Shown: positions 28,324 to 50,808 of the stretch, piece after piece
Position numbering within the stretch: the first letter of the stretch is position 1
How the letters are laid out: each line of letters starts with the position of its first letter
DNA from: Candidatus Thorarchaeota archaeon
Lineage (GTDB): Archaea > Asgardarchaeota > Thorarchaeia > Thorarchaeales > Thorarchaeaceae
DNA: 64,000 nt
Assembly: GCA_046758445.1 (NCBI GenBank)
Contig: JBHIAE010000014.1
Location: forward strand, 1 to 64,000
Direction of reading: 5' to 3'
Program-made: the position numbers and the translations under genes
The notes under the pieces: model-generated
Database searches by the model: none
Told to the model about the DNA's origin: nothing
Seen by the model: the letters and a program-made list of their open reading frames with translations, nothing else

Positions 28324-28420
28324 AACCTTTGTGGTGGGTTGATCGCATCTCCGAGTGCCGGAACAAGAGTGAGTCGTTGTGCACCGAAACTGATAACAAG
28401 AGTCTACAAAGGGAAAAGTC

Positions 28421-28477
28421 GCTCAACAATAACAGAAGGGCAGACCCCCAATCTCTCTATCACCGCCCCTTCTGCTT
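28421..28477 (+). repeat. Short-form (type B) repeat (copy 2)
   Basis: gctcaacaataacagaagggcagacccccaatctctctatcaccgcc matches the copies at 44449 and 50661. Confidence 0.8.
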
Positions 28478-28597
28478 CAGTCATCACTAATGATGTCTTC
28501 TCCATGATTGAACTGCTGCAGAGATTTCAGCATGAATGGAAAAGGATAGATTCATGATAAGGGCTCATGCTATATCTCAATTCACTGGTGAGTCGAT

Positions 28598-31621: not shown

Positions 31622-31990
31622 ATGGAATCCAGAGAATCATTGATTCTGATTGCCCACGCAGTCATAATCTACTTTGTATGTTTTGCAGTGATGGGTGCTT
31701 CGATGGCAACGATGCCAATCGACACAGCATTAGTAGTTCATGCAGCGGCGGCACCTTTTGTTTCAGCTGCATTCTCATACATCTACTTCATGAGATTCAA
31801 CTACACTAGCCCGCTACTAGCTGCTCTTGTGGTAATGGTTACTGTGATCTTGCTGGACTTCTTCTTGACAGCAACAATCATCCTTCAGGACTATGCCATG
31901 TCCTACAGTCCAATTGGAACTTGGATTCCTTTCGCACTGATCTTCACCGGAGCGTTCCTAGTTGGCTATTATGTGAATAGAGAGCAATAG
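31622..31990 (+). CDS. Four-helix membrane protein
   Basis: Hydrophobic 122-aa ORF ending GTWIPFALIF. Confidence 0.7.
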   Translation: MESRESLILIAHAVIIYFVCFAVMGASMATMPIDTALVVHAAAAPFVSAAFSYIYFMRFNYTSPLLAALVVMVTVILLDFFLTATIILQDYAMSYSPIGTWIPFALIFTGAFLVGYYVNREQ

Positions 31991-32097
31991 ACGCGATTCA
32001 TTTCGAGCTGCACTCTCAAAGAAGAAGACACCGAGCAGAAGAATCATCGATTCAACAGGTGTCTACAATCGACAGTTAGGAAGAGGCTGGTGATACA

Positions 32098-32548
32098 ATG
32101 AGTAGTCGCATTGATGTGGAGATAAAGCAGTCATCCCTTATTCGTGCTAGCCCGGAAGATGTCTATGATGCCCCTGGAACTGCCGCTGGACTTGACGCGT
32201 GGTTTACTTCAGGATCAGAGGTGGATGCAAGACCCGGAGGAAGTATCGAGTGTCGATGGAAAGAGTGGGGGCCTGACAAATACACCGCAGAGGCTGGAGG
32301 ACCAGTACTTGAAGCCGGAGCAGGGCAAGAGGTTTGTGTTTCAGTGGTACCCAGACAGTGGTAACCCAAAGCTAGCAACCACGATTGAAATTGACTTTGG
32401 AGCATTTGAAGAAGGAACTGTGGTACGAGTTCGAGAGTATGGACACGAAAACGCACCTACCAGTCTAGCTGCATTAGCTGAGTGTGCCGCTGGTTGGGGG
32501 GAAGCTATTACATTACTGAAATTCTACGTGGAGCATGGAATCAAGTAG
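32098..32548 (+). pseudogene. SRPBCC/AHSA1 domain gene with one frameshift near 32315
   Basis: N-half IRASPEDVYDA..GLDAWF..DARPGG and C-half RFVFQW..TTIEIDF..GW..LKFYVEHG lie in different frames. Confidence 0.75.
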
Positions 32549-32900
32549 CAGTGACTCTGCTACGAACTCTCCTTGATACACGCCATGAAGTTGAAAACTG
32601 ATTACTCACTCGTAATCATTCCTACTCATTTGCCAGTTCTTTGAAGGCCTGTTATGGAAGTCTTGTTGTGCTTAGGTAGCGGATTAGAAACGGTCAACCT
32701 TCTCGTTCGTTTGGCACAAAGACAAAGATGTCATAACGAACATGCAGGGGATCATCCCTGATACGTGTAGTCTTGACAAATGCCTTTAGGTGTTCACTCG
32801 CACATCGCTCGAGGCACTCCTCGACCTTGGCTTCGCTCGTGGTTCCCAACACATGTCGTAACATTAAAGAGACCCCCTCAACGAGGTACTGCCTTTCATG

Positions 32901-33245
32901 TCAAAAGGTCGGTTTCTTGGCAGATATGAACTCATGCAGATATCTACTCTGACCATCGATCTCCCATTCATCTTCTCCCAGCTCTTCCTTCAACACACGA
33001 ATCAATTGGTTACTGGTTTCAGTGAAGACTTCCTGTCTAAGGGCAGTGGCTATGAGAGCCAAGCTTCTGATGAGATCAAGAATCTTGTGTTCATCAAAAC
33101 CTGCCAGCCATTCCTCTTCCTCAAGTAGCTCCTCGATTTCCCCCAAGTCTGTCGGCAGGTTAATCTCTGAGAGAATCAGCACCGCATCTCTTCTAAGACG
33201 CTTGAGAGCTCTCTCTAGCACCTTGATTGGCCTCTTTCCACTCAT
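32901..33245 (-). CDS. Hypothetical acidic helical protein
   Basis: ATG-started 114-aa ORF preceded by GGAGG-like sequence. Confidence 0.6.
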   Translation of the reverse strand: MSGKRPIKVLERALKRLRRDAVLILSEINLPTDLGEIEELLEEEEWLAGFDEHKILDLIRSLALIATALRQEVFTETSNQLIRVLKEELGEDEWEIDGQSRYLHEFISAKKPTF

Positions 33246-33841
33246 CCTAGACCCTCCTTATCATTGAGTCCGAAGCCACCAAGTCGGAGGGTTTTTCTCT
33301 AGAAGCGTAATCAGTGTGTCCTTCAAGTCTGCGAGTCAGTTTCTTAGAATGCAGTAATATTGGTTCTGTCAAGTCAAATCGCTTCCTAAGCCATTCCTTA
33401 TGATCGGTTACAGTAGAAAGGCAAGATTCGGATATAATACACAACCTCTGATGCTCTTCCTGTGTAAAGTAACAAGACAATGAAGTCTCAATCACTGGCA
33501 CGAAAGCTGTCTTTCTCGTTTGTGCTTCTGTTCCCTTGCATGAGCCCAGAATGTGTAAACGCAAGTAGTGTGAGACTGAGTATCCTTATAAAGATGTTCA
33601 ATAAATCAATAAATCACTATAATTATATGACTTGTGTTGTATAAATCGAGATAACAGTGTAACGTGGGGATGCGCCGAATGCTCATTCCGAAGTGTTTCG
33701 TTTCTCGGATTGGTTCTCATCTTGTCTTATGTGTTAGATGCAGAAGCAAAGCTGCTCTGCAGTGGCAATGAGCAGTCCCTCAATGCTCGGCCACTGCTGC
33801 TGACACTCTTCAAACCGCAACAGAACTGAAAGATGGGGCGT

Positions 33842-35680
33842 CTATGGGAGGTCTATCAACTCCAAGGGGTCTATGCCCCGTACATCTTCTCCTTCCTCTC
33901 TCAGTCTAAGGATAGCGAGTTCATAGGCCTTGAGAACATCGGCCTTTGTGATGAAGCCGATCATCTTCGCGGGGGTTCCTGAGTCAACAACCACTGCATG
34001 CCCTTCTTCTCTCTCCAGCATTTCATGGAGAACAGTATCCATTGGAGTGGTCGGAAGAATACGGAGGAAGTCAGTTTTCATGAAGTCACGAACCCGGCAG
34101 TCTTGGCAGCCGCCCTCTGGTCCGCTAAATAGGTCTTCAGTAATGAGGGCACCCAAGATTACGTCGTTCTGGTCAACAACAGGAAACTTGGTGTGCTGAG
34201 TTTCATCAACTATCTTCAAGACCTCGCTTACGGTCATCTCTGGTGATAGCTTGGTAGGATTGGTTGTCATCACATGTCCTGCATTTGCTTCTTTCAGTGC
34301 ACCGATGTACAGTGCCCTATGGACATTCATACCTCTGCGTGCCAACTTCAAGGTGTAGATGCTCTCTTCCTCTATAGAGGACGCCACTAGGAAGGATGCA
34401 GAAACTGAAATCATGAGTGGAAGAATCATTGAGTAGTCCCCAGTCATCTCCATGAGCATCAGAATACAAGTGATAGGCGCCCGACCTGAGCCAGCAAAGA
34501 GAGCCGCCATCCCGACTAGCGCATAGGCCATGGGGTTGGGTATGAGTCCGGGGAACGTCATCGAAAATAGCTGGCCAAATCCTCCACCTATTGCCGCTCC
34601 TATGAAGAGTGATGGTGCAAAGACCCCGCCGGAACCCCCCGAACCAAGAGTGAAAGACGTGGCAAAAGCCTTGAGGATTCCAAAGACGATTAGCGCTGAG
34701 AATGCCACGTTTCCGATAAGAGTGGCGTCTATGAATGCATAACCAACGCCCATGATCGCAGGGAAGTATGGCTCAGTGGGTTTGAAGATGCCAGCGTATC
34801 CGAAGTCTCCTTCGAACACAATCACTACAACACTGATTAGTCCTACAATAATCCCTCCGAAGACAGTGAGACCATACCTAGATCCTCGAATCCTTTCAAG
34901 GATATCCTCAATCGCATAGAATCCGCGGGTCCACAGCACGCTAGCCACACCTAGAACAAGCCCAAGCAGGAGATAGGGTAGGAGCTCCCAGTAGTTGCTC
35001 AATGCGAAAGCAGGTGCTTGGAATGATGGCTGAGTTCCAAGAACCGCGTCAACCAGCGCAGTCGCTATGACGGATGAGAAGATGATAGGTATGATTGAGA
35101 TCCCTACAATACCTCCACCAACGATCTCTATTCCGAAGAGTGTGCCACCCAAGGGGGAATTGAATGTGGCCGCGATGCCCGAAGCGGTGCCGCAGACTAC
35201 AAGCGTCTTGGTCATTCTCTTGTTGAGTTTGAGGTACGTTGCAAGTGATGATCCCGCACCGCCCCCAATCTGTGCAATGGGGCCTTCTCTGCCACAAGAC
35301 CCTCCCGAACCGATACAGATTGCGGAGGCGAGACTCTTCAGAATTGGAACTCTGAAGCGTATCTTACCTCCCCGGAAAGTGTATGCATCGATTATCTCCG
35401 GAACTCCATGTCCCTTGGCTTCGGGGGCGTAGCGCTGTACTATGATGGCAACCAGCAGGCCCCCAAGGGCTGGAGCCAAAACCCATCCCCAGGTGCCAAG
35501 GACTGCGGGCAAGATGACAAACATAAGACTCATGCCTTGGATAAGCCACCTGAAGAACAAGGCGGTAAAGCCTGAGATCACGCCGACGACAGCTGCAAGG
35601 AAGTATACCCACAGCCTTTGGTTTCTCGATTCTCTTCCAATCATTGCTGCGTGGCACCTTCTGACACGGATGGGCGTCAT
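33842..35680 (-). CDS. ClC (EriC) chloride/proton antiporter with CBS pair
   Basis: GHGVPE, GREGP, GVFAP signatures; two C-terminal CBS domains. Confidence 0.93.
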   Translation of the reverse strand: MTPIRVRRCHAAMIGRESRNQRLWVYFLAAVVGVISGFTALFFRWLIQGMSLMFVILPAVLGTWGWVLAPALGGLLVAIIVQRYAPEAKGHGVPEIIDAYTFRGGKIRFRVPILKSLASAICIGSGGSCGREGPIAQIGGGAGSSLATYLKLNKRMTKTLVVCGTASGIAATFNSPLGGTLFGIEIVGGGIVGISIIPIIFSSVIATALVDAVLGTQPSFQAPAFALSNYWELLPYLLLGLVLGVASVLWTRGFYAIEDILERIRGSRYGLTVFGGIIVGLISVVVIVFEGDFGYAGIFKPTEPYFPAIMGVGYAFIDATLIGNVAFSALIVFGILKAFATSFTLGSGGSGGVFAPSLFIGAAIGGGFGQLFSMTFPGLIPNPMAYALVGMAALFAGSGRAPITCILMLMEMTGDYSMILPLMISVSASFLVASSIEEESIYTLKLARRGMNVHRALYIGALKEANAGHVMTTNPTKLSPEMTVSEVLKIVDETQHTKFPVVDQNDVILGALITEDLFSGPEGGCQDCRVRDFMKTDFLRILPTTPMDTVLHEMLEREEGHAVVVDSGTPAKMIGFITKADVLKAYELAILRLREEGEDVRGIDPLELIDLP

Positions 35681-36052
35681 TCTGATGACTTCTAGCTAGC
35701 TGCGTTCAATTCGGTTCAGAGTTAAACCTTTCGTGTCGTCAGTTCATAGATTCAGAAAATCCACTCACATTAGCCGCCTTCCTGCATTCTGAAACAGAGC
35801 TACTGCGGCATGAATCGTTGAGAGATGGGGAGGGAGTTAGAAGAGGTTTGACACAGCATTCGAGCCCATTGATGTGCTTCAACAGTCCTACCTAGCCGAG
35901 CCACCGCTGAGCTCGCATACATTGCCATCGCTTGAGGAAGAGTTCATTAATCAAGCGTTAACTCAACTGACAGATAATACAAAATGGAATCTAGAAAAGT
36001 GCTGAAGCCCTTTGTCCAAACAACAGAACCAGTTAGATAGTTCATTTGCCAA

Positions 36053-36286
36053 TTACGCTCGTTGATTAAGCTCTACAGTGTCACGGTCATGAAGAACATT
36101 ATCAGGATTTGCAAGAGCATTGTTAATATAGCAGTCACCAACGTCATCTAGATTCAATCCCAATCGATGCAAAAAGTCTTGAAAATGCTCTCCTTCAACG
36201 TACTCGCACAGCATGATTGCACTGCTATTGGGCCCTCTTTCCTTGGCCAACTCCTTGAGGTCGCCGTACAGATAGACTTCTATCAT
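36053..36286 (-). CDS. MoaD/ThiS-like beta-grasp protein without C-terminal Gly-Gly
   Basis: MIEVYLYGDLKE...LGL...YINN....VLHDRDTVELNQRA. Confidence 0.6.
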   Translation of the reverse strand: MIEVYLYGDLKELAKERGPNSSAIMLCEYVEGEHFQDFLHRLGLNLDDVGDCYINNALANPDNVLHDRDTVELNQRA

Positions 36287-36547
36287 ATGTCTAATACAAG
36301 GTTCATAACAGATAAACAATTTGAATGAGCACTTGGGAGAGTTCAGAAGACAATTCGTCCAGGAACGCTTATTCCAACTCCTCGCAATGAAAGTCACATA
36401 GGCGTGTGCGCAAGGACCAAACGCACTGTCCTAAGAACGATTATGCAGTGGGATACAGGATTCCTTATATTGACTTGTAGAACATCCGACTTCAGGAAGA
36501 CCCAGTCGTGTTGGATTTAGCACAGAAGGTGTACAGAAACGGATAGC

Positions 36548-37300
36548 TTGACCACATTGATTCTGGCTGTGATTATAGGGCTGATTGGAGGATTTAGCAG
36601 CGGGCTTTTTGGTATAGGGGGCGGCTCAATCAGGATTCCCCTGTTGAATCTTGCGGGCATTACTCTGATCTCAGCATATGGCCTGAATCTCCTGGTACTC
36701 CCATTGACATGCTCTACAGGGGCAATATCGCAAAGAACCAATATCGATGTGCATATTGGCATGTATATGATCGTTGGTGGTTCGATAGGTACAGTAGTAG
36801 GCACACTAGTGGCCTTTTCTCTAGCCGCAACTGCTCTCTTGTTGGCTGCTGTTTTTGTGCTGGCCTCCATAGTCGCTGTGATTGCCATGAACCTGAATTA
36901 CTTGGCACCAGAGGCCTCGAGTCACATGAATCCGACAGCATTGAATCTGACGTCGGGTACTCTGATATGCAACACTCTGACTGGGATGAGGGGAGGGACA
37001 GAGGGGTCCCTGTTTGTACCCCTCCTCAAGGCATTGAATATCGATATGCACAAGGCTATTGCCACTGCGCTTTTCTCAGCAGTGTTCACATCTCTAATAG
37101 GTCTAATTCTCTACTGGAACCGAGGATATATACCATGGATTGAGGGCATTGCTCTGCTCATAGGGTCAGCAGTTGGAGCAAGATTCGGGAGTGTCCTCTC
37201 CATCACGACTGAATCGAGATTGTTGAAGCTTGGCCTCTCAGTCATAATCGTCATACTCGCATTGGCCACGCTGCTGAAAGCCATGCTGCTTTCGATATAG
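36548..37300 (+). CDS. TauE/SafE sulfite exporter family
   Basis: GF.SGLFGIGGG..IP, A.AT.L, about 8 TM segments. Confidence 0.88.
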   Translation: MTTLILAVIIGLIGGFSSGLFGIGGGSIRIPLLNLAGITLISAYGLNLLVLPLTCSTGAISQRTNIDVHIGMYMIVGGSIGTVVGTLVAFSLAATALLLAAVFVLASIVAVIAMNLNYLAPEASSHMNPTALNLTSGTLICNTLTGMRGGTEGSLFVPLLKALNIDMHKAIATALFSAVFTSLIGLILYWNRGYIPWIEGIALLIGSAVGARFGSVLSITTESRLLKLGLSVIIVILALATLLKAMLLSI

Positions 37301-37353: not shown

Positions 37354-37493
37354 ATTCCCTGTCAAAGGCCCGCACCTCTTCCCACTCCGAAGAGCAGGAA
37401 CAAGCTGCTCTACCTCCAAGTAGTAGAATCCTAGGAGGTGATTGATGGATGATGAGGAAATCTCAACTTCTTCCATCCGCAGCTTCCGCTACG
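37354..37493 (+). repeat. Long-form repeat, 3' two-thirds only (copy 3)
   Basis: attccctgtcaaaggcccgcacctc...caagctgc...ctaggaggtgattgatgga...tcttccatccgcagcttccgctacg. Confidence 0.85.
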
Positions 37494-37585
37494 GATACCT
37501 CACAGTCCTGAGAGAGTCAACCTTTGGGAGACATCCTCTTTCCTTCATCTACAAAGGCCCTTGGTTTGACAATAGATTATATGAT

Positions 37586-41768: not shown

Positions 41769-42317
41769 CTATGTTCTCTTTGCTAGGACGCTCTCCAAAC
41801 AGTATACAGTCAGTCTTGGCTCATCACAAAGACGACCAAGTTCGCAGTCAGTGCATAGCCCCTCAAGGTTGTCCTTGCTCAAGTCCAAGTTTCCTTTCTC
41901 CTCGTGTAGTCGATGAAGAATCTTCAGATACTTCCCTTCTGCTATACGAGGGACCTCATTCCGTCTTTCAAGCTTGAACCATTCATACAGACCCCTGTTA
42001 CCTTTTGAACTGTTACAGCTTCTGCAGGCCATGACTATATTATCGGAAATGTCAGGCCCGCCTCTACTCACCGGTATCAGATGGTCATACGAAAGGTCCT
42101 CAGTTGATTCACAGTAGATACACTGGTTGGGCATCTCTCGTTCGCGAATGTACTCTTGAATGGAACCAGACCACTCAATCTCCCCAGCCTGAAGCTTCTT
42201 GAAGCGGTTCATTATGAAGGCAAACTGTTTCTTCCCGAATCCCGCCGAGGATGAGATGATCTTGGAGTACTGCCAGTAGATCAAGTTTCGTATCGTCTTG
42301 ACTGCTGCAGGCGGCAT
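41769..42317 (-). CDS. HNH endonuclease
   Basis: CIYC...DHLIPVSRGG....NIVMACRSCNSSKG. Confidence 0.9.
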   Translation of the reverse strand: MPPAAVKTIRNLIYWQYSKIISSSAGFGKKQFAFIMNRFKKLQAGEIEWSGSIQEYIREREMPNQCIYCESTEDLSYDHLIPVSRGGPDISDNIVMACRSCNSSKGNRGLYEWFKLERRNEVPRIAEGKYLKILHRLHEEKGNLDLSKDNLEGLCTDCELGRLCDEPRLTVYCLESVLAKRT

Positions 42318-42424
42318 CGCAGACTATCTCCCTTCTTTGGGGTTCTTGACTCTGGAATCTTATCAAGATTGGGGAGTTGCAGACCTTTGAGCTTATCACT
42401 AATCAACTGACAAAGTGAGAATGC

Positions 42425-42527
42425 AAAATGACAGGGCGCTCAACAGTATGCGTCAGGGCAAGTGCCAACCTGGCGTTGGGCAACCTGACCGATTGAATCG
42501 CATTCCCTGGTGTTAGCCTTCACCTCT
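42425..42527 (+). repeat. Long-form repeat, 5' part (copy 4)
   Basis: aaaatgacagggcgctcaacagt...cagggcaagtgccaacctggcgttgggcaacctgaccgattg. Confidence 0.88.
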
Positions 42528-42755
42528 TATTATCAGCATCTCGAAAGATGGCTCATTCTAATTCAGAGATGACTCTTGAATACAAGGCAAATACCTGATG
42601 AAATATCAGGTATCCAGCAGCTACTGAAATCTTGGAAAAGGTTAGACAAGATTTTCATATTCAGGGTAAGAATGTGATATTTCATCCATGAATCGCATAT
42701 TTCATCCATATCTTTATATCATATTGACTATACATAATGTAAGGTGCTCATCTTG

Positions 42756-42995
42756 ATGGTACGAGTTCGAATGGATGGCCAACGGCGCATCAGAATTCCA
42801 AGGAAGGCTGGAGTGGAAGGAAACACATTCTTTCTCCTCGCTCTTGGATCATATCACATCCTCTTTCCTGTGCCGTCTGAAAAGCCAGAACTGGATATTG
42901 AGGGGCCCATTGCAGAGCTTCTTGCTCAAGCAGAGGTGGAGATTATTAGAGATGTGTCTGAGAGATGGAAGAGGAAAGACCAAGATGCTGATTGA
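42756..42995 (+). CDS. AbrB/SpoVT-like antitoxin (TA pair 1)
   Basis: VRMDGQRRIRIP; overlaps the downstream PIN gene. Confidence 0.75.
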   Translation: MVRVRMDGQRRIRIPRKAGVEGNTFFLLALGSYHILFPVPSEKPELDIEGPIAELLAQAEVEIIRDVSERWKRKDQDAD

Positions 42996-43401
42996 GAATG
43001 ACATGGTTCTGGCATTCTATAAGAAAGATGACCACCTACAACCCCATGCGAATCGTCTGTTCTCAAGGATTGAGCAGGGCGATTTCGGTACGGTCGTCAT
43101 TCCCAGTGTCTTCTCGATTGAGCTCTACTACGTTTTAAGATCCCTCACTGGTGTGACTCCAGTTCGAGATGTCATAAGCCATCTCATTACATTCCCCAAT
43201 CTCTCAGTAGTACCCTCCACCATTGATCATCAGTTGGCAGCGTTGTTCCTTCTGGACAACTACAAATTAGGATCTATCTTTGATGCAGTCTATGCCGCAG
43301 TTTCACTCAGTGATGACAATCCGGACCACACAATCATCTCTACAGACCATATCTATGATAGAATTGAAGGCTTGACAAGACTCGACCCTACCAGAATCTA
43401 G
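42985..43401 (+). CDS. vapC: PIN-domain VapC-type toxin (TA pair 1)
   Basis: MLIENDMV..D.L, IELYY, IFDAVYAA, ISTDHIYDRI. Confidence 0.85.
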   Translation: MLIENDMVLAFYKKDDHLQPHANRLFSRIEQGDFGTVVIPSVFSIELYYVLRSLTGVTPVRDVISHLITFPNLSVVPSTIDHQLAALFLLDNYKLGSIFDAVYAAVSLSDDNPDHTIISTDHIYDRIEGLTRLDPTRI

Positions 43402-43445
43402 TATATTGCATACAGAACGGGCTGGTCACGAGAAAGGACAGATGC

Positions 43446-43669
43446 AAAAGAGAGAGGGTGCTCAACAGTGCGAGCCCGGGCAAGTGCCAACTTGGCGTTG
43501 GGCAACCTGACGATTGCACCGCATTCCCCGTCAAAGGCCCGTACCTCTATTGCAGTCCCAAAAGGACTGCAACCAAGCTGCTTCTACCCCTAAGGATAGA
43601 AAACTTAGGAGGTGATTGATGGAAGACGAGAGTGACTCTCACCCTCTTCCATCCGCAGCTTCTGCTGCG
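43446..43669 (+). repeat. Full-length structured repeat (copy 5)
   Basis: Closely similar to 47838-48058 and 45974-46197; multiple hairpins. Confidence 0.92.
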
Positions 43670-43702
43670 TTTTTTGATTGATATTCGTGTCTATTGTCCG
43701 CC

Positions 43703-44107
43703 TTAATAATCAATCACGATTAGCTCTGCCACAGAATCGAAGTGGGAATCACGAGTTACCAGAGGGAAGTTGTGATGTTTTGCTGTTGCAGCGATAATCA
43801 CATCTGCATACGGAATTATCTTTCCTTGTCGATAAAGATCACCATCAATACGTGCAGCCTCCCGTGCAATCTCGGAGGTATAATCGAGTTGATCGAAATG
43901 TGCAAGATCAATCAGAGCTTTACTCAGCTTTGACTTCAGTGTCTTTTTCTCCAAATGATAATAGAATATTCCCCGAAGATACTCATGAACAGTGACCACA
44001 GAGATTGCCTTGATATCAGAGCCGCTATCGACCTGTTTGGCCTTGGCTACCGCGCCAGGGTCCCCATTTGTAAGGTCAACGAGATACCCAGTGTCAAAGA
44101 GCGGCAT
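43703..44107 (-). CDS. vapC: VapC PIN-domain toxin (TA pair 2)
   Basis: LFDTGYLVD, VTVHEY, DVIIAATA, LVTRD.HF. Confidence 0.92.
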   Translation of the reverse strand: MPLFDTGYLVDLTNGDPGAVAKAKQVDSGSDIKAISVVTVHEYLRGIFYYHLEKKTLKSKLSKALIDLAHFDQLDYTSEIAREAARIDGDLYRQGKIIPYADVIIAATAKHHNFPLVTRDSHFDSVAELIVIDY

Positions 44108-44111
44108 GTTT

Positions 44112-44357
44112 TCACCCCTCATTTTGCTGAGAAACCAGAGATAGAGCTCTCTCCTTGTCACGTGCAGCCTGTTCCTTTTTCAGCTCCTTTAGTTTCATCC
44201 ATTCTTCAGAGCTCATGGTTGCAGTCCCTGCAAGATCAGATATCACACCTCTAGTCTTGATGAGCCTTCGTAGGAGCTCACTGAAGCTCTCACCCCTTCT
44301 CTTTAGACGTTTGAGTTCATTATAGACGTCATCTGCTACTGCTATGTTCTTGGCCAT
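44112..44357 (-). CDS. vapB: Archaeal VapB-type antitoxin (DUF217-like) (TA pair 2)
   Basis: KNIAVADDVYNELKRLKRRGESFSELLRRL. Confidence 0.88.
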   Translation of the reverse strand: MAKNIAVADDVYNELKRLKRRGESFSELLRRLIKTRGVISDLAGTATMSSEEWMKLKELKKEQAARDKERALSLVSQQNEG

Positions 44358-44368
44358 CTGAATCAGCC

Positions 44369-44386
44369 ATACATATGCATATGAAT
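44369..44386. promoter_or_regulatory. Palindromic operator candidate of the vapBC promoter
   Basis: atacatatgcatatgaat (perfect core CATATGCATATG) between the start codon and a TTTATATA box on the minus strand. Confidence 0.55.
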
Positions 44387-44443
44387 ATATAAACTCCATC
44401 ATGAATATGATTCGCTGTAATCAGACGAATAGCCCAATGGAGG

Positions 44444-44508
44444 ATGAGAGGGTGCTCAACAGTGACAGAAGGGCAGATCCCCAATCTCTCTATCACCGCC
44501 GCCTCTAC
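44444..44508 (+). repeat. Short-form (type B) repeat (copy 6)
   Basis: 44449-44508 is identical over 60 bp to 50661-50720. Confidence 0.92.
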
Positions 44509-44537
44509 TTCTCTCTACCCTGGGAAACCAAGAGAAT

Positions 44538-44819
44538 CTAGCCCAGCCAATCATATCCCTTGCTTCGATGGATAATCTCTGTGACTCTAACTTCTTTGTC
44601 AACTACGAAATAGATTGCCCTATAGTCACCAATTCTCATGCGAAACAGAGGAGGTTCCGACGGATATCTAAGCTTCTTGATGTCAGCACCGGATCGACTT
44701 CGAAATGGGTCTTGCTCTAAGCTCAAAAGGGCCTCCTTGACTCGCTTCTTCTGAGCCGGTTTCAAGAGTTCCAGTTGGGAAACTGCAGTTTCTGATAGCA
44801 GGACCCTATGTTTCGTCAA
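44538..44819 (-). CDS. relE: RelE/ParE-family toxin (TA pair 3)
   Basis: DIKKL...FRMRIGDYRAIY...I.HRSKGY. Confidence 0.9.
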   Translation of the reverse strand: MTKHRVLLSETAVSQLELLKPAQKKRVKEALLSLEQDPFRSRSGADIKKLRYPSEPPLFRMRIGDYRAIYFVVDKEVRVTEIIHRSKGYDWLG

Positions 44820-45003
44820 GAGAGATGAACTCCTCTTCAGCTAGGATACGCTTCTGCCTCTCTCCGAACTCCACCTCTTCTGCAATAGTGAGAAGGCGCC
44901 TGACTAGTTCATCATAGGTTTCCCCCTTTCTCCCGAAACGTTTCAAGAGATCTCTCGTTTCTTTAGAAAGTGGAATTGTCGTTGTTTCGCCCATATCTAT
45001 CAT
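44806..45003 (-). CDS. RHH-type antitoxin (TA pair 3)
   Basis: TTIPLSKETRDLLK..G.KGETYDELVRRL...FISLDE; overlaps relE. Confidence 0.85.
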   Translation of the reverse strand: MIDMGETTTIPLSKETRDLLKRFGRKGETYDELVRRLLTIAEEVEFGERQKRILAEEEFISLDET

Positions 45004-45082
45004 ATCTTATAATGTTGATAGTTACTTATAACTTTCACGGTAATGAGAACCAAGAGCCTTTGGTCGTTGCCTGAACATGCGG

Positions 45083-45167
45083 AATGAAAGGGTGCTCAAC
45101 AGTGCCAGCCAGGGCAAGTGCCAACCTGGCGTTGGGCAACCTGACGATTGACCGCGTTCCCCGTCAA
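45083..45167 (+). repeat. Long-form repeat, 5' part (copy 7)
   Basis: aatgaaagggtgctcaacagtgccagccagggcaagtgccaacctggcgttgggcaacctgacgattg...ccccgtcaa. Confidence 0.9.
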
Positions 45168-45174
45168 CAGAATA

Positions 45175-45591
45175 TCATACTAAGGTCACGAGTCCACCAA
45201 AATCTGAATCGAAGGTTGCTAAGTATGTCACATTATTGCCATCGATGTAAGCAAGGATACAACAGTCAGTAAATCTTAGGGGTCTCTCAGGCCATTTCGC
45301 AAATTGCCTCCATTTATCCCATGCAAGATCTAGAGTTCTAGGTGTTATGTATTCAAACCTTATGAATTCGGGAGTATTGCGAATCAGATCATACGCCTTA
45401 CGCACTATGTTCTTCTTTTTCGTGTGCATCCACAAGGTTGTTAGTACTTCATCCAAGACATAGTCAACTGTCAGTCTCATTCCATATTTCGGGTCCTTGA
45501 GCTCAGTGAGAAGTTCTTTCGCTTTGGAATGGTTATTGTCGCGAGTGTTCAGCAACGCAATGATGACATTACTGTCGATAAGCACCGTCAT
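45175..45591 (-). CDS. vapC: VapC PIN-domain toxin (TA pair 4)
   Basis: VLIDSNVIIA...D..H, VLDEV, FTDC, ATFDSDF. Confidence 0.92.
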   Translation of the reverse strand: MTVLIDSNVIIALLNTRDNNHSKAKELLTELKDPKYGMRLTVDYVLDEVLTTLWMHTKKKNIVRKAYDLIRNTPEFIRFEYITPRTLDLAWDKWRQFAKWPERPLRFTDCCILAYIDGNNVTYLATFDSDFGGLVTLV

Positions 45592-45881
45592 GCAGAGTCC
45601 CCGCCGTATACAACCTCATCCACTTTAGACGAGAGGTCCTCACTTCCCTGTCCCAAGTCCTCAGCTAGGGAGAGGATCTTCTTTATAGTGTCATCGTCGA
45701 GAGGGAGCTCCTTTAATCGCACCTCCTTCACTATGAGGTCATAGTTCTCAAGTCCAATCCTGAACACAATCTCCAGTATCTCCTTCTTAGTCAGACGTTT
45801 TCGTGTGTCTAGATACAGACGCGCCTGCAACTCCTCAAGGTCATCCTTAAGGTCAAACTTGACGGTGGACACTGGTAACAC
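45588..45881 (-). CDS. Putative antitoxin (TA pair 4)
   Basis: STVK...LEELQARL...DLSSKVDEVVYG; ATGA overlap with vapC. Confidence 0.8.
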   Translation of the reverse strand: MLPVSTVKFDLKDDLEELQARLYLDTRKRLTKKEILEIVFRIGLENYDLIVKEVRLKELPLDDDTIKKILSLAEDLGQGSEDLSSKVDEVVYGGDSA

Positions 45882-45973
45882 CCAGTAACTCAGTAACCAT
45901 CAACTCATATAAACTTGTAGAATATTCATGGCTCATCTAAATCTCAGATCTGGTGCTGGCTCTGAGTATGAAG

Positions 45974-46197
45974 AATGAGAAGGGTGCTCAGCAGCGTGGG
46001 TCAGAGCAAGGCCAACTTGGCGTTGGGCAACCTGACGGCTGCACAGCGTTCCCCGCCGTCGAAGGCCCGTACCTCCCTTGTATCCCCGAGCGGACGCAAA
46101 GCAAGCTGCTTCTACCTCTAAGAGATAGATATCCTAGGAAGTGATTGATGGAAGACGAGATGACTCTCATCCTCTTCCATCCGCAGCTTCCGCTGTG
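45974..46197 (+). repeat. Full-length structured repeat (copy 8)
   Basis: Same block order as copy 5, with compensatory stem changes. Confidence 0.92.
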
Positions 46198-46291
46198 GTG
46201 ATCAATCAGAGTATTCAGCATACCTTCAATGATTTTATATATGATTCAGGTCCATATTATCTTGTCAGGTATATTACGTTTTATCAGGTGA

Positions 46292-46552
46292 ATGCCAATG
46301 AGTCTGATTATAGAGGGACAAATCGGAAAGAAGCACACGATATACCTTCCAAAGGCTGTTGTTGATGAGGCAAGTCTCGAGGAGGGAATGAGGATCCAAA
46401 TCACTGTAGAGGGTAATAGAATCATCATTGAGCCTATTCCAGACCCTATCGCTCTTGCAATACACGGAAAGAAGTTTGCAGAAATGACACTAGAAGATAT
46501 CGAGGTCATCAGTAGTGAAGAACAGGCAAGGCACACAGAAGATTCTTCTTGA
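46292..46552 (+). CDS. AbrB/MazE/SpoVT-family antitoxin (TA pair 5)
   Basis: IGKKHTIYLPKAV....LEEG..I...VEGNRIIIEP. Confidence 0.88.
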   Translation: MPMSLIIEGQIGKKHTIYLPKAVVDEASLEEGMRIQITVEGNRIIIEPIPDPIALAIHGKKFAEMTLEDIEVISSEEQARHTEDSS

Positions 46553-46967
46553 TACTTCATTTCTTCTACCTACCCTCGGAATAGAGGTAGAAAGGGAGGT
46601 AGTACAGACAATCTCAAGGATTGATCAAGAACAGACTCAGCTGTTCTACTCAGAGTGGAGTTTCCTTGAGAGCAGTTGGGTGGCAATACGACTGCTAAGA
46701 CAGAAGAAGTTTGAAGAGCCAGTCTATCGAAGAGGACTTCTGAGTATAACCAAGACCCATGTCTACGACACTATCACGATGGACCCACACGATTACCTGA
46801 CTGCACTTACGTTTTTCCAGAAAGGGCACTCAGATATGATTGACAATCTATTGTATGCAGCCGCTCTCAGGGAGGGGTGCAAATTCCTCACCATTGATGA
46901 GGAGTTCTCACGCTTCATTTCCAAGAACGATCTTGAGAATGCTATTTTGACTCCCAAGGACATCTAA
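46515..46967 (+). CDS. vapC: VapC PIN-domain toxin (TA pair 5)
   Basis: ILLDTSFLLP, SFLES, HSDMIDNLLYAAA, FLTID. Confidence 0.9.
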   Translation: MKNRQGTQKILLDTSFLLPTLGIEVEREVVQTISRIDQEQTQLFYSEWSFLESSWVAIRLLRQKKFEEPVYRRGLLSITKTHVYDTITMDPHDYLTALTFFQKGHSDMIDNLLYAAALREGCKFLTIDEEFSRFISKNDLENAILTPKDI

Positions 46968-47012
46968 ACAACTGAAGTATATTCTCACACCTGGGAAGAC
47001 TGGTATTCATTA

Positions 47013-47164
47013 AAAATGAAAGGGTGCCCAACAATGTGAGCAGGGCAAGTGCCAACTTGGCGTTGGGCAATCCGACCGATTGCACCGCGCTCCCCATCCT
47101 AAGCCTGCACCTCTCTCTGCCCGAAGGCAGAGCAAGCTGTCTTCATCACTTGAGATGGTGGAAA
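47013..47164 (+). repeat. Long-form repeat, 3'-truncated and diverged (copy 9)
   Basis: aaatgaaagggtgcccaacaatgtgagcagggcaagtgccaacttggcgttgggcaa...ctctgcc-cgaa-ggcagag-caagctg. Confidence 0.88.
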
Positions 47165-47194
47165 GTATGATAGTCTGAATCGGTTTTCGAGCTT

Positions 47195-47470
47195 TCACAA
47201 AAGACTCAAGAATTCCTCTTTGGATAGTCCACTCTGCTTGATGATAGAGAGGAGAGTTCCTCTTGGAATTGGATTTCTATGGGGAATGATTACAAGATGA
47301 GGTCGACCATTTGCATCGTAGATGACAAGAGCCGTGTGACTTCCTTTCCCTTTCACGGGAGCATACTGGAAACCAGCCTTGAGTAGCTTCCGAGTGAGTT
47401 TCTTACTACCAATCAGAGGTAGTCGGTCCACAATGCTCGACCTCTCGACAAGACTAGAGAGTCTAGACAT
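47195..47470 (-). CDS. hicA: HicA toxin (TA pair 6)
   Basis: L.KAGF....KGSH...VIIPH..IPRGTL.SIIKQSG. Confidence 0.9.
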   Translation of the reverse strand: MSRLSSLVERSSIVDRLPLIGSKKLTRKLLKAGFQYAPVKGKGSHTALVIYDANGRPHLVIIPHRNPIPRGTLLSIIKQSGLSKEEFLSLL

Positions 47471-47699
47471 TGATCTCGATTGTGCGGGTAGATTTCTCAG
47501 GGGTGGTTATGATAGGGAGATAATCGTCAATAATCCCAAGTTCACGTGCATTAACAAGCCATAGTTCTATCGCCTCTGTGAGGTTAGAGAGAGCCTCTTC
47601 AAAGGTGTCACCTGCTGAAGCCACATCAATCTCAGGGCTTTTTGAAACATATGTTCCATCTTCTTCCCAAATTACGGCAGTGAATCTTACTTTCATCAT
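47463..47699 (-). CDS. hicB: HicB antitoxin (TA pair 6)
   Basis: EEDGTYVS..PE....GDTFEEAL.NL.EAIELWL. Confidence 0.9.
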   Translation of the reverse strand: MMKVRFTAVIWEEDGTYVSKSPEIDVASAGDTFEEALSNLTEAIELWLVNARELGIIDDYLPIITTPEKSTRTIEINV

Positions 47700-47837
47700 T
47701 GACTACAACCATCCAGAGTTCTTGAATTAAACTATTTCATTGATGAGATCATAACGCTAAACTCTCAAGTATTAACCATGAGGACCCAATATTAACCAAT
47801 ATGGTAGGCAGATCCACTCATTCATGGATTGTTCTGC

Positions 47838-48058
47838 AAAATGAGAGGGTGCTCAACAATGTGAGCAGGGCAAGTGCCAACTTGGCGTTGGGCAACCTGA
47901 CCGATTGCACCGCATTCCCCGTCAAAGGCCTGTACCTCTATTGCAGTCCCGAAGAACTGCGATACAAGCTGCTTCTACCCCTAAGGATAGAAAACTTAGG
48001 AGGTGATTGATGGAAGACGAGGAAACCTCATCCTCTTCCATCCGCAGCTTCCACTACG
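47838..48058 (+). repeat. Full-length structured repeat (copy 10), overlapping the copA 3' end
   Basis: Closely similar to copy 5; its last about 30 nt encode the end of CopA on the minus strand. Confidence 0.92.
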
Positions 48059-50280
48059 AACACCTTGTCTTTCTCAGTTCTGACGTAAGAGTTTGCCAAG
48101 ACAGCTGAAACACTTCCGGCCATCGCGATCATTGCCCACACTGGATGGAGCAATCCAGTCATGGCTAGAGGTACACCAATTCCATTGAACACAAACGCAA
48201 GTAGCACATTCTGCAACGTCTTCGAGTAACTAGACCTGCAGACATTATATGCATCAATCACACCCCTTAAGCGATCACTCACAATCACAATGTCAGCAGA
48301 CTCAATCGCGATGTCACTTCCGGCACCAATTGCAATTCCAATGTCCGACTGCATCAATGCGGGAGCGTCATTTATGCCATCTCCAACCATAGCAACTCTC
48401 TGGTCCTGGGCCTGAATCTTTCTAATCATGGCTGATTTCTCTTGAGGTAGGACTCCTGCATGGACCTCTGAAATACTCAATTCCTCTGCTATTGCACTAG
48501 CAGTGAGCTTATTGTCTCCCGTAACCAAGACCGGCTCAATACCTTCTGCCTTTAATTCTAGAACCACATCCTTTGCATCCTCTTTGAGCAGGTCTCCAAT
48601 TGCTATCATTCCAGCCAATATTCCGTTGACACTTACAGCTACCACGGTCAGACCTTCCCTCTGCATTTGCTCTAGTTTCTTGGGGAACTCGCCCTCTCTC
48701 GCTCCATCCTCCTTTAGAAACTCTGGACTGCCTACGAGTATGATTGCATCCCTCACGCGGCCACGAACACCCTTTCCTAGGTGAGCGCGAAAATCATCGA
48801 CAGTTTCTATTTGTACAACATCTTGCAGAGCCCGTTCTATCACCGCACGAGCCAATGGATGCTCGGAATTGATCTCTAAACTGGCTGCGAATGAGAGGAC
48901 TTCTGAATTACTGAAGCCATTAATGGCCACAATGTCAATGACGCTGGGTCTTCCCATCGTGAGTGTACCAGTCTTGTCGAAAACAACCCTTCGAACATCC
49001 TTGAATGTCTGAAAGGCCTCTCCTGACCGAATTAGCACTCCTCTTTGCGCGGCGATTCCACTCCCTCGAATCAAAGCCAGAGGCGTCGCCATCCCTATAG
49101 CGCATGGATAACCCATCACTAGAACAGCTAGTGCTGCAAAGACTCCTACTTCGAGATTTGACTCACCAAGGAGCAACCATGCACCAAAGATCCAAAACGC
49201 AAATGCGACAATTGCAGCCAGCAGCACCCCTCGAACGAAGTACTTCAGTATACGATCCACTAGCATGACAATATCAGGCTTTAGAGCCCTTGCTTCTCTG
49301 ATGTGTGCTGCAATCTGCTGAAGAAATGATTCTTCCCCCACTCTTGTCACTTCAATAATGAGGAATCCTCTCTGGTTAAGAGAGCCCCCGATGACCTCAT
49401 CCCCTCTTTCTTTTGGGACAGGAATCGGTTCACCTGTGACAAGGCTTTCATCTACGGCTGAAGCGCCTCTTCTTACGATTCCATCAACAGGGATGCTCTC
49501 ACCCGGTAACACCTTGACTAGATCACCCTGTTTCACATTCTCAACAGGAATCTCGGTTTCACTCTCGCCAGGTCCGATGAGCCTTGCGGTTGCAGGTTGG
49601 AGGTCCATGAGCTTCTTGATTGCCTGAGATGAACGAGTACGAACAAGAAGAGATACATAGCCAGAGAGGACATGATATGAGGTCACAAATACAGACACTG
49701 CAAAGAAGTCCATAACAGGCCATGGTTGAATAATGATGCCAATGATGCCCCCTAGAATCCCGCCAAAGGCAGCAAACTCTAAGAGCACATGCTGGTTTAG
49801 TATCCCTCTTCGAAGAGATGCTCCTGCCAATCGTTTTATGTGCAGCCCTGGACCAAACATTGTCAGGACTGCCAGAGAGAACATAATACTGAATCCAAAT
49901 GGAATAGAATAACCAGTCCACATCAGTAACATCATGGTGGCTGCTAATAGTGTCAGAATACCAGCAGCAATCAGCCACTTCTTTTCTAGAATAAGCTCTT
50001 CCTCATCTTCTTCAAGGCTGCGTACCTTGTCAGGGTCACGGATGGTGAACCCAATGCTTCGCAGAGTATCCTTGATGGCCGTGGGTGTCTGGTGCCCGGG
50101 ATCATACTCTATAAGTGCCTCCTCATGACTCAAACTCACGGCTACATCACAGACTCCCTCCATTCTCGAAAGTGCCTGTCTTACACTTTCTGTGCAGAAC
50201 GAACACTGAAGCCCCCCAATCTTGACCAACAACTTGTCGCGAACAAGTTGTGCATTGGACTCTTCTACCAATATCACCAT
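48028..50280 (-). CDS. copA: Heavy-metal P1B-type ATPase (CopA-like)
   Basis: N-terminal GLQCSFC, TGEP, GYPCAIG, DKTGT, SEHP, TGDN, GDGINDAP. Confidence 0.88.
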   Translation of the reverse strand: MVILVEESNAQLVRDKLLVKIGGLQCSFCTESVRQALSRMEGVCDVAVSLSHEEALIEYDPGHQTPTAIKDTLRSIGFTIRDPDKVRSLEEDEEELILEKKWLIAAGILTLLAATMMLLMWTGYSIPFGFSIMFSLAVLTMFGPGLHIKRLAGASLRRGILNQHVLLEFAAFGGILGGIIGIIIQPWPVMDFFAVSVFVTSYHVLSGYVSLLVRTRSSQAIKKLMDLQPATARLIGPGESETEIPVENVKQGDLVKVLPGESIPVDGIVRRGASAVDESLVTGEPIPVPKERGDEVIGGSLNQRGFLIIEVTRVGEESFLQQIAAHIREARALKPDIVMLVDRILKYFVRGVLLAAIVAFAFWIFGAWLLLGESNLEVGVFAALAVLVMGYPCAIGMATPLALIRGSGIAAQRGVLIRSGEAFQTFKDVRRVVFDKTGTLTMGRPSVIDIVAINGFSNSEVLSFAASLEINSEHPLARAVIERALQDVVQIETVDDFRAHLGKGVRGRVRDAIILVGSPEFLKEDGAREGEFPKKLEQMQREGLTVVAVSVNGILAGMIAIGDLLKEDAKDVVLELKAEGIEPVLVTGDNKLTASAIAEELSISEVHAGVLPQEKSAMIRKIQAQDQRVAMVGDGINDAPALMQSDIGIAIGAGSDIAIESADIVIVSDRLRGVIDAYNVCRSSYSKTLQNVLLAFVFNGIGVPLAMTGLLHPVWAMIAMAGSVSAVLANSYVRTEKDKVFVVEAADGRG

Positions 50281-50304
50281 TCCGCCTCTGTTCTTCCCGA
50301 TTCC

Positions 50305-50541
50305 TCAGCCCGAAGAAACAGGTGACGCAGGAAATCCAATCTTCTTTAGCACCTCTATGATTCTTTCAAGAACAATCTGATCTGAATCATAACTCACAAC
50401 TACTTCCTGAGTTGACTGACTTGTTTCTACAGCTAAGACTCCGGAGAGGATGTTCAATACATTCTTGATTCTCTTCTCGCAACTTGTACAATGAATTGCA
50501 TTTTGCTGAACAATGAGCTTGGTTCGGTGGATGTCTGTCAT
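50305..50541 (-). CDS. copZ: HMA-domain metal chaperone (CopZ-like)
   Basis: IHCTSCEKRI...L..V; start taken at MTDI (50541). Confidence 0.8.
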   Translation of the reverse strand: MTDIHRTKLIVQQNAIHCTSCEKRIKNVLNILSGVLAVETSQSTQEVVVSYDSDQIVLERIIEVLKKIGFPASPVSSG

Positions 50542-50653
50542 TGCATGAGCGTTTCCTAATATGTAATACCTAATCTCAAGGCAGATATATCCAACAAATA
50601 TCATTCATCGAAAAAAGAGCTATGGAAATCGGCATTGGGAATCAATTCAATAG

Positions 50654-50720
50654 AAATGAAAGGGTGCTCAACAGTGACAGAAGGGCAGATCCCCAATCTC
50701 TCTATCACCGCCGCCTCTAC
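50654..50720 (+). repeat. Short-form (type B) repeat (copy 11)
   Basis: 60-bp identity with 44449-44508. Confidence 0.92.
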
Positions 50721-50808
50721 GTTCCTCCTATTCAGGAGAAATCAGTCCATCCTCCTATTCACATAGTCAGTAAAGCACTTCAACATACTCGACGTAGAGC
50801 TATGTGGT

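Follow-up and report, generated by a model that had tools for sequence, protein, structure and literature searches.

The window analyzed here is a stretch of 64,000 nucleotides from a Candidatus Thorarchaeota archaeon (assembly GCA_046758445.1, contig JBHIAE010000014.1, referred to as C14). Between positions 41769 and 50720 of this window, an HNH endonuclease gene, six toxin-antitoxin (TA) pairs and copZA are kept apart by exactly one repeat per gap. The HNH gene (41769..42317, minus strand; PF01844, E 6e-15) is followed by an antitoxin-like ORF (42744-42995) with a Pfam-supported PIN/VapC toxin (42985-43401; the pair at 42744..43401, plus strand), a VapB (PF02697) and VapC (PIN) pair (43703..44402, minus), an RHH-like (DUF7557) antitoxin with a ParE/RelE toxin (44538..45003, minus), a further antitoxin with a PIN/VapC toxin (45175..45881, minus), a MazE/AbrB antitoxin with a PIN/VapC toxin (46292..46967, plus), a HicB-like antitoxin with a HicA toxin (47195..47699, minus) and, finally, the CopA P-type ATPase (48028-50280) with CopZ/HMA (50305-50604; together 48028..50604, minus). 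By Pfam, the toxins are four PIN/VapC, one ParE/RelE and one HicA. A previous, sequence-only reading of this DNA had proposed the same gene content, which Pfam supports except for the antitoxin ORFs 42744-42995 and 45588-45881, where the search gave no match. It had also described a strict alternation of units and repeats, and its repeat positions (42425, 43446, 44444, 45083, 45974, 47013, 47838 and 50654) match the plus-strand starts that we computed (42422, 43443, 44444, 45083, 45974, 47013, 47835 and 50653). Its statement that minus-strand units end 8-35 bp from the repeat or inside it held in substance, the measured distances being 10-50 nt, with the copA stop codon within the repeat at 47835-48071 (overlap 48028-48071). 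The cassettes are strikingly compact; a dedicated mechanism would account for this more readily than illegitimate joining at random.

A blastn search of the 3.25-Mb genome with the repeat found only 17 loci: 13 on C14, all in plus orientation, three at the end of contig C2, all in minus orientation, and one on contig C1. The ends of C14 and C2 share an exact 55-nt overlap, and 16 of the 17 loci form one array in one orientation, the C1 copy being solitary. This array spans about 54 kb and about 16 repeats, all of them antisense to the plus strand of the window; it runs from window position 28413 to the end of C14 and on through C2 to the single intact 16S rRNA gene (C2:122207-123860), where it terminates. 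The window thus holds its middle part, with repeats on both sides of 41769-50720. Neither this continuation nor the 16S origin of the repeat described below was part of the sequence-only reading. The distal boundary at 28413 is a conserved core flank with a core M24 peptidase gene, the same flank limits the array in the related genomes G009 and G011, and the 16S gene adjoins the array also in G018 and G011. Short intergenic repeats, one of them a solitary copy, might suggest a MITE-like or other small transposable element inserted between pre-existing genes. We consider this extremely unlikely, given the concentration of copies in a single array and orientation, the failure to find terminal inverted repeats when these were looked for in the repeat, the identity of the sequence as a 16S tail, and the fact that cassette content, not just repeat presence, varies among relatives. 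The genome-wide search did not reveal the dispersed, MITE-like distribution that would have spoken against the sequence-only reading.

By their sequence, the repeats are displaced and partly truncated copies of the tail of the only 16S rRNA gene in the genome. Read in reverse complement, the repeat gives the 3' end of the 16S rRNA followed by a 3' trailer of about 165 nt, and its stretch GGAGGTGAT...ATGG likewise corresponds in reverse complement to ...GGATGG[insert]ATCACCTCC. An archaeal SSU rRNA was recognised by Rfam at L002:4108-5695, and the last repeat is directly continuous with it. A full tail comprises helix 45, a mini-insert of 31 nt, the anti-Shine-Dalgarno end and the trailer. The terminus of the trailer, CACTGTTGAGCACCC plus a T-run, makes up the base of the pre-16S processing stem by pairing with the 5' leader (leader L002:3957-4030 with trailer 5810-5912). 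The sharply conserved "left end" of the repeat, here called the head, is the 3' strand of this base. The same or nearly the same head ends every complete functional trailer read across the family (n=14) except that of L042, and it covaries with the leader, GCTCA(A/G)CAGTG in the leader accompanying CA(C/T)TG(T/C)TGAGC in the head. Displaced tails of both types have kept the ability to pair with the leader of this genome, 13 of the 15 scored doing so at -55 to -79 kcal/mol (shuffles -40 +/- 5). A model of the head matches 66 of 86 family genomes, with at most 17 copies in each, clustered on the same strand.

Displaced tails are of two types. Type B matches the functional trailer of the congener G011, and type A tails are 86-93% identical to the functional tail of G007 versus 74-81% to that of the genome that carries them. 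All tails in the window lie on its minus strand. Type A is represented by a copy whose head is missing (37354..37500; refA 45-200, 86%; helix 45, insert 5, anti-Shine-Dalgarno end and proximal trailer), by short copies at 42422..42507 (distal trailer and head; refA 195-280, 87%) and 45083..45165 (refA 191-275, 91%), by a medium copy at 47013..47144 (refA 137-277, 87%), by long copies at 43443..43669 (helix 45 to head; refA 52-280, 90%) and 45974..46194 (refA 55-275, 86%), and by the longest copy at 47835..48071 (refA 39-280, 88%), which reaches the 3' edge of 16S insert 4, carries a G007-type insert 5 and provides the last 12 codons and stop of copA. Type B is found at the distal array end (28413..28478, aligning to 87-146 of the functional G011 trailer), at 44444..44519 (refB 72-148, 84%) and at 50653..50716 (refB 87-151, 88%). 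The tails are polar: the head is their best conserved and sharpest portion, and the ends on the 16S side are ragged, lying at refA 39, 45, 52, 55, 68, 95, 137, 191 and 195 and at refB 70, 72, 72, 87 and 87, a spread of about 150 nt. Neighbouring tails are not each other's closest copies, and types A and B are interleaved. Furthermore, the tails at 65062 and 76672 alone share CAGCGTACACCAGGG, which indicates exchange between tails.

The sequence-only reading had suggested an integron-like system whose recombinase acts in trans. In such a system a dedicated site-specific recombinase, encoded elsewhere, would recognise the head and excise or insert units of cargo plus tail. Several observations favor this idea: the head motifs GCTCAAC and GTTGAGC resemble the R'' and R' cores of attC, the head is the sharpest and most conserved part of the tail, cargo and the tail on its 16S-distal side move together, much as an ORF and its attC do, homology to G007 breaks exactly at the head, and compact, single-operon, TA-rich cassettes are found in chromosomal integrons and archaeal CALINs, for which an enrichment in Asgard archaea has been reported (Ghaly et al. 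2022, PMC9668308). As in those systems, the array has one orientation, each compact accessory cassette has its repeat, many cassettes are self-promoted TA pairs, some are common to several species, and array content differs among relatives. However, the part that the head plays in the 16S processing stem explains its conservation and sharp end, and it covaries there with the leader, not with an internal partner. Single-stranded DNA folding of four tails on both strands was no better than that of shuffles (z -0.3 to +1.8), in agreement with the earlier remark that the site does not fit the single-hairpin attC; the type B repeat strand has no GTTRRRY partner, and the R''/R' match is lost in the G018 tails. 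We therefore rejected an attC-like hairpin site: the repeat is a 16S 3' end with its trailer, ragged on one side, and it pairs with the 16S leader instead of with itself. The array also differs from integrons in having neither IntI nor attI, although IntI is not required for a CALIN, and in being anchored on an rRNA gene.

The predicted trans-acting recombinase found no support either. In this genome, whose completeness of 92.7% makes the absence of an IntI gene provisional, PF00589 detected only two tyrosine recombinases, on contigs C34 and C52, scoring 71 and 30 bits against a XerA/IntI cut-off of 220 bits (NF040815). No integron integrase was found beside the array and profile searches detected no integrase gene within its 54 kb; no Y1 transposase was found in the genome and no reverse transcriptase near the array, and the IS110 genes are either on other contigs or separated from the array by 95 kb or more. 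With no tyrosine recombinase, Y1 transposase, reverse transcriptase or Pfam Cas1 near the array, and with the properties of the tails described above, we regard an integron-like mechanism as unlikely. CRISPR-like, Cas1-mediated insertion with duplication of the repeat is not supported either, since Cas1 (PF01867) was not found in the genome, a 1717-aa protein encoded in the array had no database match that would mark it as Cas1-like, and neighbouring tails are not the most alike.

Comparison between related genomes, which the sequence-only reading had called for, showed that array content differs at repeat boundaries and that cassettes occur in different species, in differing contexts, with much higher similarity than core genes. 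An 81% HNH homologue in G009 sits between two heads; homologues of the VapBC pair at 43703..44402 are in the arrays of G023 and G024, one of the MazE/AbrB pair adjoins a tail in G023:C44, a pair homologous to HicBA lies between tails in G023:C63, and the G018 homologue of the pair at 45175..45881 lies between two tails. The ParE cassette is about 85% identical in nucleotide sequence to those of G001 and G009, versus 64-73% for core DNA (measured against G009), and its proteins show 86-97% identity to those of two further Thorarchaeota species. Part of the conserved block is the type B tail at 44444..44519, on the side away from the 16S gene, which is 82-83% identical between species, the adjacent genes reaching 66-71% at their least conserved codon position; the 35-45 nt beside the tail on the 16S side are only 29-40% identical, which a simple unit of incoming tail plus cargo does not predict. 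The copZA cassette is 97.5% identical to that of G007 (98% at the protein level) versus 89-91% for core DNA, and this homology (G007:C335) begins exactly at 47833, beyond which the left neighbour differs. Of the gene-capture platform proposed earlier, then, a one-orientation, repeat-delimited array of accessory cassettes with variable content is supported, and the integron-type mechanism is not.

A single insertion, that of the mer cassette, could be reconstructed. In G007 and G018 the gene order is 16S, tail, a gene for a 1717-aa protein, and TnpB. In the present genome the functional tail is of a foreign type (78% identical to that of G007) and beside it lie a 237-aa fragment, derived from a paralogue with 45% identity to the 1717-aa gene, and then ArsR-MerA-MerB; beyond the mer genes comes an old tail cut within insert 5, followed by the outer flank that G007 also has (CTTCAATGGA.G.GAA). 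As read from these junctions, foreign DNA with its own 16S end and tail replaced the resident tail, the old one being displaced outward and truncated.

These results lead us to propose, with a probability of roughly 55%, that the array grows by repeated recombination, both homologous and illegitimate, at the 16S 3' end and its tails, and that it is integron-like in outcome only. DNA bearing its own 16S 3' end and tail would recombine with the resident gene by one homologous crossover within the 16S or the tail, and the second junction would arise either by homology in a resident tail or illegitimately within the old 16S end or tail. A working 16S gene would thereby be restored, and the former tail, cut back from the 16S side, would be pushed outward with the older cassettes. 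Homologous recombination between the direct tails could then lead to excision, re-insertion, interspecies exchange or loss of cassettes, and TA pairs would accumulate through the penalty that they impose on such deletions. Contigs of public runs showed neither circular nor deleted forms, which counts against this scheme. Except for the mer event we infer these steps, among them the first joining of the 0.6-1-kb TA cassettes to tails. Tandem genomic islands at the 3' ends of tRNA and tmRNA genes arise by integrase-mediated duplication of att sites. The array resembles them in having an intact RNA gene at one end and, between successive insertions, direct repeats that are displaced pieces of its 3' part, and in that incoming DNA restores the 3' end of the gene, here in the mer event. 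In contrast to those islands, the target is a 16S rRNA gene with its processing-stem trailer, units are as small as one TA operon, none carries an integrase, and the gene-side boundaries of the repeats are imprecise. Integrase-driven tandem elements are not supported, as the 54 kb contain neither an integrase nor precise blocks of att identity.

The array also encodes a TnpB (PF07282, E 3e-13; NCBIfam guided_TnpB NF040570, E 1e-26, below the cut-off of that model), and the neighbouring 1717-aa protein has no match in Pfam, NCBIfam or PDB. Behind TnpB, the segments GTCGG|ACCTTGTTACGACTC and GTCGG|GGATCACCTCCTAAG match the 16S 3' end read without inserts 4 and 5, and CGGAT precedes both targets. 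Asgard archaea have TnpB/omega-RNA systems and aCas1-linked TnpB loci (Altae-Tran et al. 2023, PMC10691335); as in TnpB/omega-RNA and collaborative-homing systems, a TnpB with a giant neighbour gene is accompanied here by guide-like matches to an insert-free 16S 3' end, and unlike in IS200/IS605-type systems no TnpA Y1 transposase was found. Mobile DNA beside the single 16S rRNA gene of an Asgard archaeon is known from Heimdallarchaeum, where, according to Wu et al. (2022, PMC8813620), HeimM2 and HeimV2 are integrated directly downstream of that gene at a site used repeatedly. They differ in being single large elements, 8 and 44 kb in size, of which one carries a homing-endonuclease-like gene, and the passages that describe them make no mention of reiterated 16S tails or of a multi-cassette array. 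The present array might be the trail of a selfish 16S-homing element, whose module of TnpB, the 1717-aa protein and mini-inserts would cut insert-free 16S genes and be copied in, with its tail, by repair. This reading, in which the mini-inserts would shield the host gene and each round of invasion would leave decayed parts or passengers behind as cassettes, seems to us rather improbable. The guide-like matches agree with such a course, as do the module directly adjoining the 16S tail in G007, G018 and G017, a fragment of a second, divergent copy beside the present tail of this genome, and long tails that end between the two target sites. On the other hand, tblastn (E up to 1) found no further remnants of TnpB or the 1717-aa gene in the array, most cassettes lie beyond the module instead of between it and the 16S gene, and G011 has an array and an insert-free 16S gene with no adjacent module. 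Moreover, the old tail of the mer event retains half of insert 5, so that the TnpB guide-3 target was already interrupted at that junction. We infer a possible link between TnpB cutting and array growth: in the recombination model TnpB may supply breaks in insert-free recipients, although the data do not require it.

Finally, tails may have been kept for a function in place, as terminators, RNA-processing 3' modules or leader-pairing decoys, and spread by gene conversion. In agreement with this, complementarity to the leader is preserved in the tails with one or two exceptions, and a T-run closes the head. Of the nine small cassettes, seven are oriented like the 16S gene and have a tail 10-50 nt past the stop codon, and between species the type B tail shows more conservation than the adjacent genes do at their least conserved codon position. 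Nevertheless, the opposite orientation is found in two TA units and several large blocks, truncation is very uneven among tails, one of which is headless, and neither the polarity towards the 16S gene nor the mer replacement would be explained. Such a function is very unlikely in our judgment to account for the tails, and so is the corollary that the array captures nothing and merely results from selection on the tails.

Together, this evidence is best read as a swappable cassette array anchored on an rRNA gene, and not as a classical integron. We found no publication describing a cassette array built on 16S tails. Tentatively, and with more doubt than confidence, we suggest that Thorarchaeota may possess a dedicated gene-capture platform of an undescribed kind, in which the 16S tail would serve as the recombination site and which would be driven by the RNA-guided TnpB aimed at the 16S 3' end, by the unclassified 1717-aa protein or both, or by a head-recognising recombinase. 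If so, Thorarchaeota would have a counterpart of the integron that is anchored on rRNA and possibly guided by RNA.

The sequence-only reading had proposed, at window positions 41769-50720, a candidate integron-like array of repeat-delimited cassettes with a recombinase acting in trans. All eight repeats that it claimed are present on the + strand where it placed them, and its list of the units between them was borne out: HNH, an AbrB-like ORF with PIN, VapB with PIN, DUF7557/RHH with ParE, an unassigned antitoxin with PIN, MazE/AbrB with PIN, HicB with HicA, and CopZ with CopA, that is, HNH, six toxin-antitoxin (TA) pairs and copZA. The array is thus real, but its extent is larger than described. 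Genome-wide blastn located only 17 repeat loci in the whole genome, 13 on C14, the contig of the window (all +), three at the end of contig C2 (all -) and one on contig C1. Since the end of C14 and the start of reverse-complemented C2 have an identical 55 nt, 40 of them unique, the array is continuous across the two contigs. The repeats lie at window positions 28413, 37354, 42422, 43443, 44444, 45083, 45974, 47013, 47835 and 50653, at C14:64303, C14:65062 and C14:67987 (the last being the same repeat as C2:138043), and at C2:129358 and C2:124027. There are two types, A (up to 235 nt) and B (~70 nt), and the left end, (C)AAAATGAAAGGGTGCTCAACAGTG, is the only part common to both.

The origin of these repeats is found at the proximal end of the array, where the last one directly continues, with no gap, the sole 16S rRNA gene of the genome (C2:122207-123794 by Rfam). 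Reading of the sequence places the true 16S end at C2:123860, as ...GCGGATGG, a 31-nt insert and ATCACCTCC, and the conserved right half of the repeat (...TAGGAGGTGATTGATGGAAG...CTTCCATCCGCAGCTTCCGCTACGGATACCTTGT) corresponds to this gene end in reverse complement; the remaining part is the 16S 3' trailer. This accounts for both the 'Shine-Dalgarno plus ATG' within the repeat and the final codons of CopA, which are 16S read backwards. We call the displaced copies tails, and their conserved trailer end the head. Rfam and tRNA scans of the window gave no match. The 16S gene as a whole (C2:122207-123860; L002:4108-5761) contains five inserts, each 30-31 nt long, after core positions 874, 1317, 1358, 1460 and 1493; relatives carry from none to three inserts, which occupy the same sites and differ in sequence.

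The 5' leader (L002:3957-4030) pairs with the trailer (5810-5912, ~100 nt), and because the leader itself has GCTCAACAGTG, the head forms the 3' strand at the base of the processing stem. Length and sequence vary among the 14 complete functional trailers of the family, 13 of which end in CA(C/T)TG(T/C)TGAGCACCC, or a near variant, plus a T-run. Genomes with leader GCTCAGCAGTG have the head ...TGCTGAGC, and those with leader GCTCAACAGTG have ...TGTTGAGC, a compensatory change. Type B is the trailer type functional in the congener G011. Thirteen of 15 scored tails, of both types, pair with the leader of the genome under study far better than shuffles do; folded as single strands, tails do no better than shuffles. 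Head ends are sharp. On the 16S side, tails stop at varied points between the 3' edge of insert 4 and the distal trailer, at reference coordinates 39, 45, 52, 55, 68, 95, 137, 191 and 195 for type A and 70, 72, 72, 87 and 87 for type B. A degenerate tail not found by blastn lies at C14:66422-66461 (L001:6422-6461) between two TA units, each of which has its own tail remnant even at this degenerate head. The solitary tail on C1 (C1:134537-135737; L003:9538-10741), outside the array, is the closest to the present functional subtype; the gene of a 378-aa HNH-motif protein begins at its head.

Outward from 16S, the array starts with the functional tail, a 237-aa fragment of a paralogue of a 1717-aa gene, and ArsR-MerA-MerB with two ORFs. 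Then come an old tail and, beyond it, the 1717-aa gene with TnpB and an SDH-type protease. Further out lie a type B tail, four units of TA or TA-like genes, and larger blocks, including window 50730-64303. These are followed by copZA, the six TA pairs and HNH, by transporter-bearing blocks and, as the last tail, the one at 28413, which adjoins a core M24 peptidase gene. Margins between cargo and tails are tight (10-50 nt), and seven of the nine small units are co-oriented with 16S. The distal blocks at window 28598-37300 (Na/Ca exchanger, 29698 ORF, 36053 ORF) have homologues of 68-81% aa identity in kept order in G009, and have the appearance of resident chromosome that became caught between tails rather than of mobile cassettes. 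A family of ~100-aa proteins without Pfam match (...LENALKRLR...EEEWLAG...) occurs twice in the array (window 32901-33245 and C2:128276-128581) and once in the array of G015, at 57-60% identity.

Integron-like in its outcome, the array fails the attC and IntI tests, and an integron-type mechanism is not supported. Nor did a recombinase-type enzyme turn up near the array: the genome has two tyrosine recombinases, both on other contigs and far below the XerA/IntI cut-off, IS110 genes are distant, and genome searches for a Y1 transposase, a reverse transcriptase and Pfam Cas1 came back negative. The array itself encodes TnpB, and behind tnpB (C2:136440-136620; L002:18341-18520) there are three guide-like segments, each after GTCGG. 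Two of them, ACCTTGTTACGACTC and GGATCACCTCCTAAG, match the 16S 3' end in its form lacking inserts 4 and 5, and in the gene CGGAT, a possible TAM, stands before each of the two targets. G011 has no 16S inserts and no TnpB module beside 16S, yet has an array, so that TnpB is not needed to keep one; no remnants of the module occur elsewhere in the array studied here. Paralogues of the 1717-aa gene and TnpB (24-58% identity) are found on contigs C85, C37, C102, C38, C36, C24, C90, C70, C4 and C15, the first three having both, and the 16S-linked pair is one member of a multi-copy element family. A Cas1-like identity for the 1717-aa protein could not be confirmed by profile, structure and feature searches: it has no Pfam, NCBIfam or PDB sequence/profile match, an AlphaFold model of residues 1150-1620 (pLDDT 62) gave no Foldseek match at E up to 0.001, and Atlas features offered only a weak STAND/AAA lead (0.83). 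HNH was discarded as a recurrent array nuclease, the head-adjacent HNH genes of C14 and C1 being unrelated outside the motif; neither recurred in the first set of loci searched, and the C14 gene later proved to have an 81% homologue that forms a cassette in G009.

The congeners of the source organism are named Candidatus Thorarchaeota MAGs. A head sequence model matches 66 of 86 family genomes, with up to 17 copies in same-strand clusters; arrays lie directly 3' of the 16S gene in G018 and G011, and those of G009 and G011 are bounded by homologues of the core block found here. Comparison between related genomes, a check named by the sequence-only reading, showed window cassettes again beside tails with differing neighbours, RHH-ParE and VapBC being adjacent in G023 too. 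Cassettes are far more similar between genomes than core DNA is: the ParE cassette has ~85% nt identity to G001 and G009, against 64-73% for core DNA (measured against G009), and copZA 97.5% to G007, against 89-91%. The copZA homology begins exactly at the head, beyond which G007 has another gene. In G011, 16S-adjacent cassettes (L066/L065, G011:C94:59134-64207) carry an M24 peptidase paralogue together with a GNAT-like gene, flanked by tails, which shows that cargo extends beyond TA and metal-resistance genes. Locus L027 (G007:C335, 7433 nt) begins at the point from which the present genome reads on beyond the type B tail at 50730, and its other end falls within copZ, directly ahead of that tail; this contig may reflect a circular or tandem arrangement of a 7.7-kb segment, or a mere assembly break at the repeat. 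Excised circles, sought as junctions in four public runs, all of them as Logan contigs, were not shown, nor were deleted forms; unitigs break inside tails, and apparent 'joints' connect distinct tail copies and are best taken as cross-matches.

One recombination event could be reconstructed. In G007 and G018 the order is 16S, tail, 1717-aa gene. The old tail and outer flank (CTTCAATGGA.G.GAA) are the same here, except that the old tail breaks off inside insert 5. The mer genes, a fragment of a 45%-identical 1717-aa paralogue and a functional tail that is new and of another subtype separate it from 16S; inserts 4 and 5 of the 16S gene also differ from those of G007. We conclude that DNA of foreign origin, bringing a 16S end and tail of its own, took the place of the resident end, which it displaced outward. 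Displaced A tails are closer to the functional tail of G007 than to that of their own genome. Duplication in situ does not fit, since neighbouring tails are not each other's closest copies, and no age gradient or neighbour similarity was seen along the array. Two tails have in common a unique head-proximal block, which points to exchange between tails. A chimeric 16S body was dismissed: the nearest relative did not change along the gene in a sliding-identity comparison.

Recombination at the 16S 3' end and tails is the best-supported mechanism; how the small cassettes arose, and what a nuclease might contribute, we infer. Literature searches found no published description of the system. The nearest are archaeal CALINs (PMC9668308) and elements in Heimdallarchaeum (PMC8813620), which are 16S-adjacent like the array described here. 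It may be asked whether some published Asgard 'CALINs' are candidate 16S-tail arrays. The finding also bears on the evolution of the 16S gene and its mini-inserts, and on the poor assembly of 16S genes and their neighbourhoods in these MAGs. Should an enzyme drive the process, it would be a new mechanism of cassette capture, possibly RNA-guided. Any DNA with a 16S end finds a homology arm ready for use in all relatives, which could account for gene flow across species that share only 64-73% identity in core DNA. In these Asgard archaea, accessory genes (TA modules, copper and mercury resistance, nucleases) are stored and exchanged with the most conserved gene of the cell as anchor.
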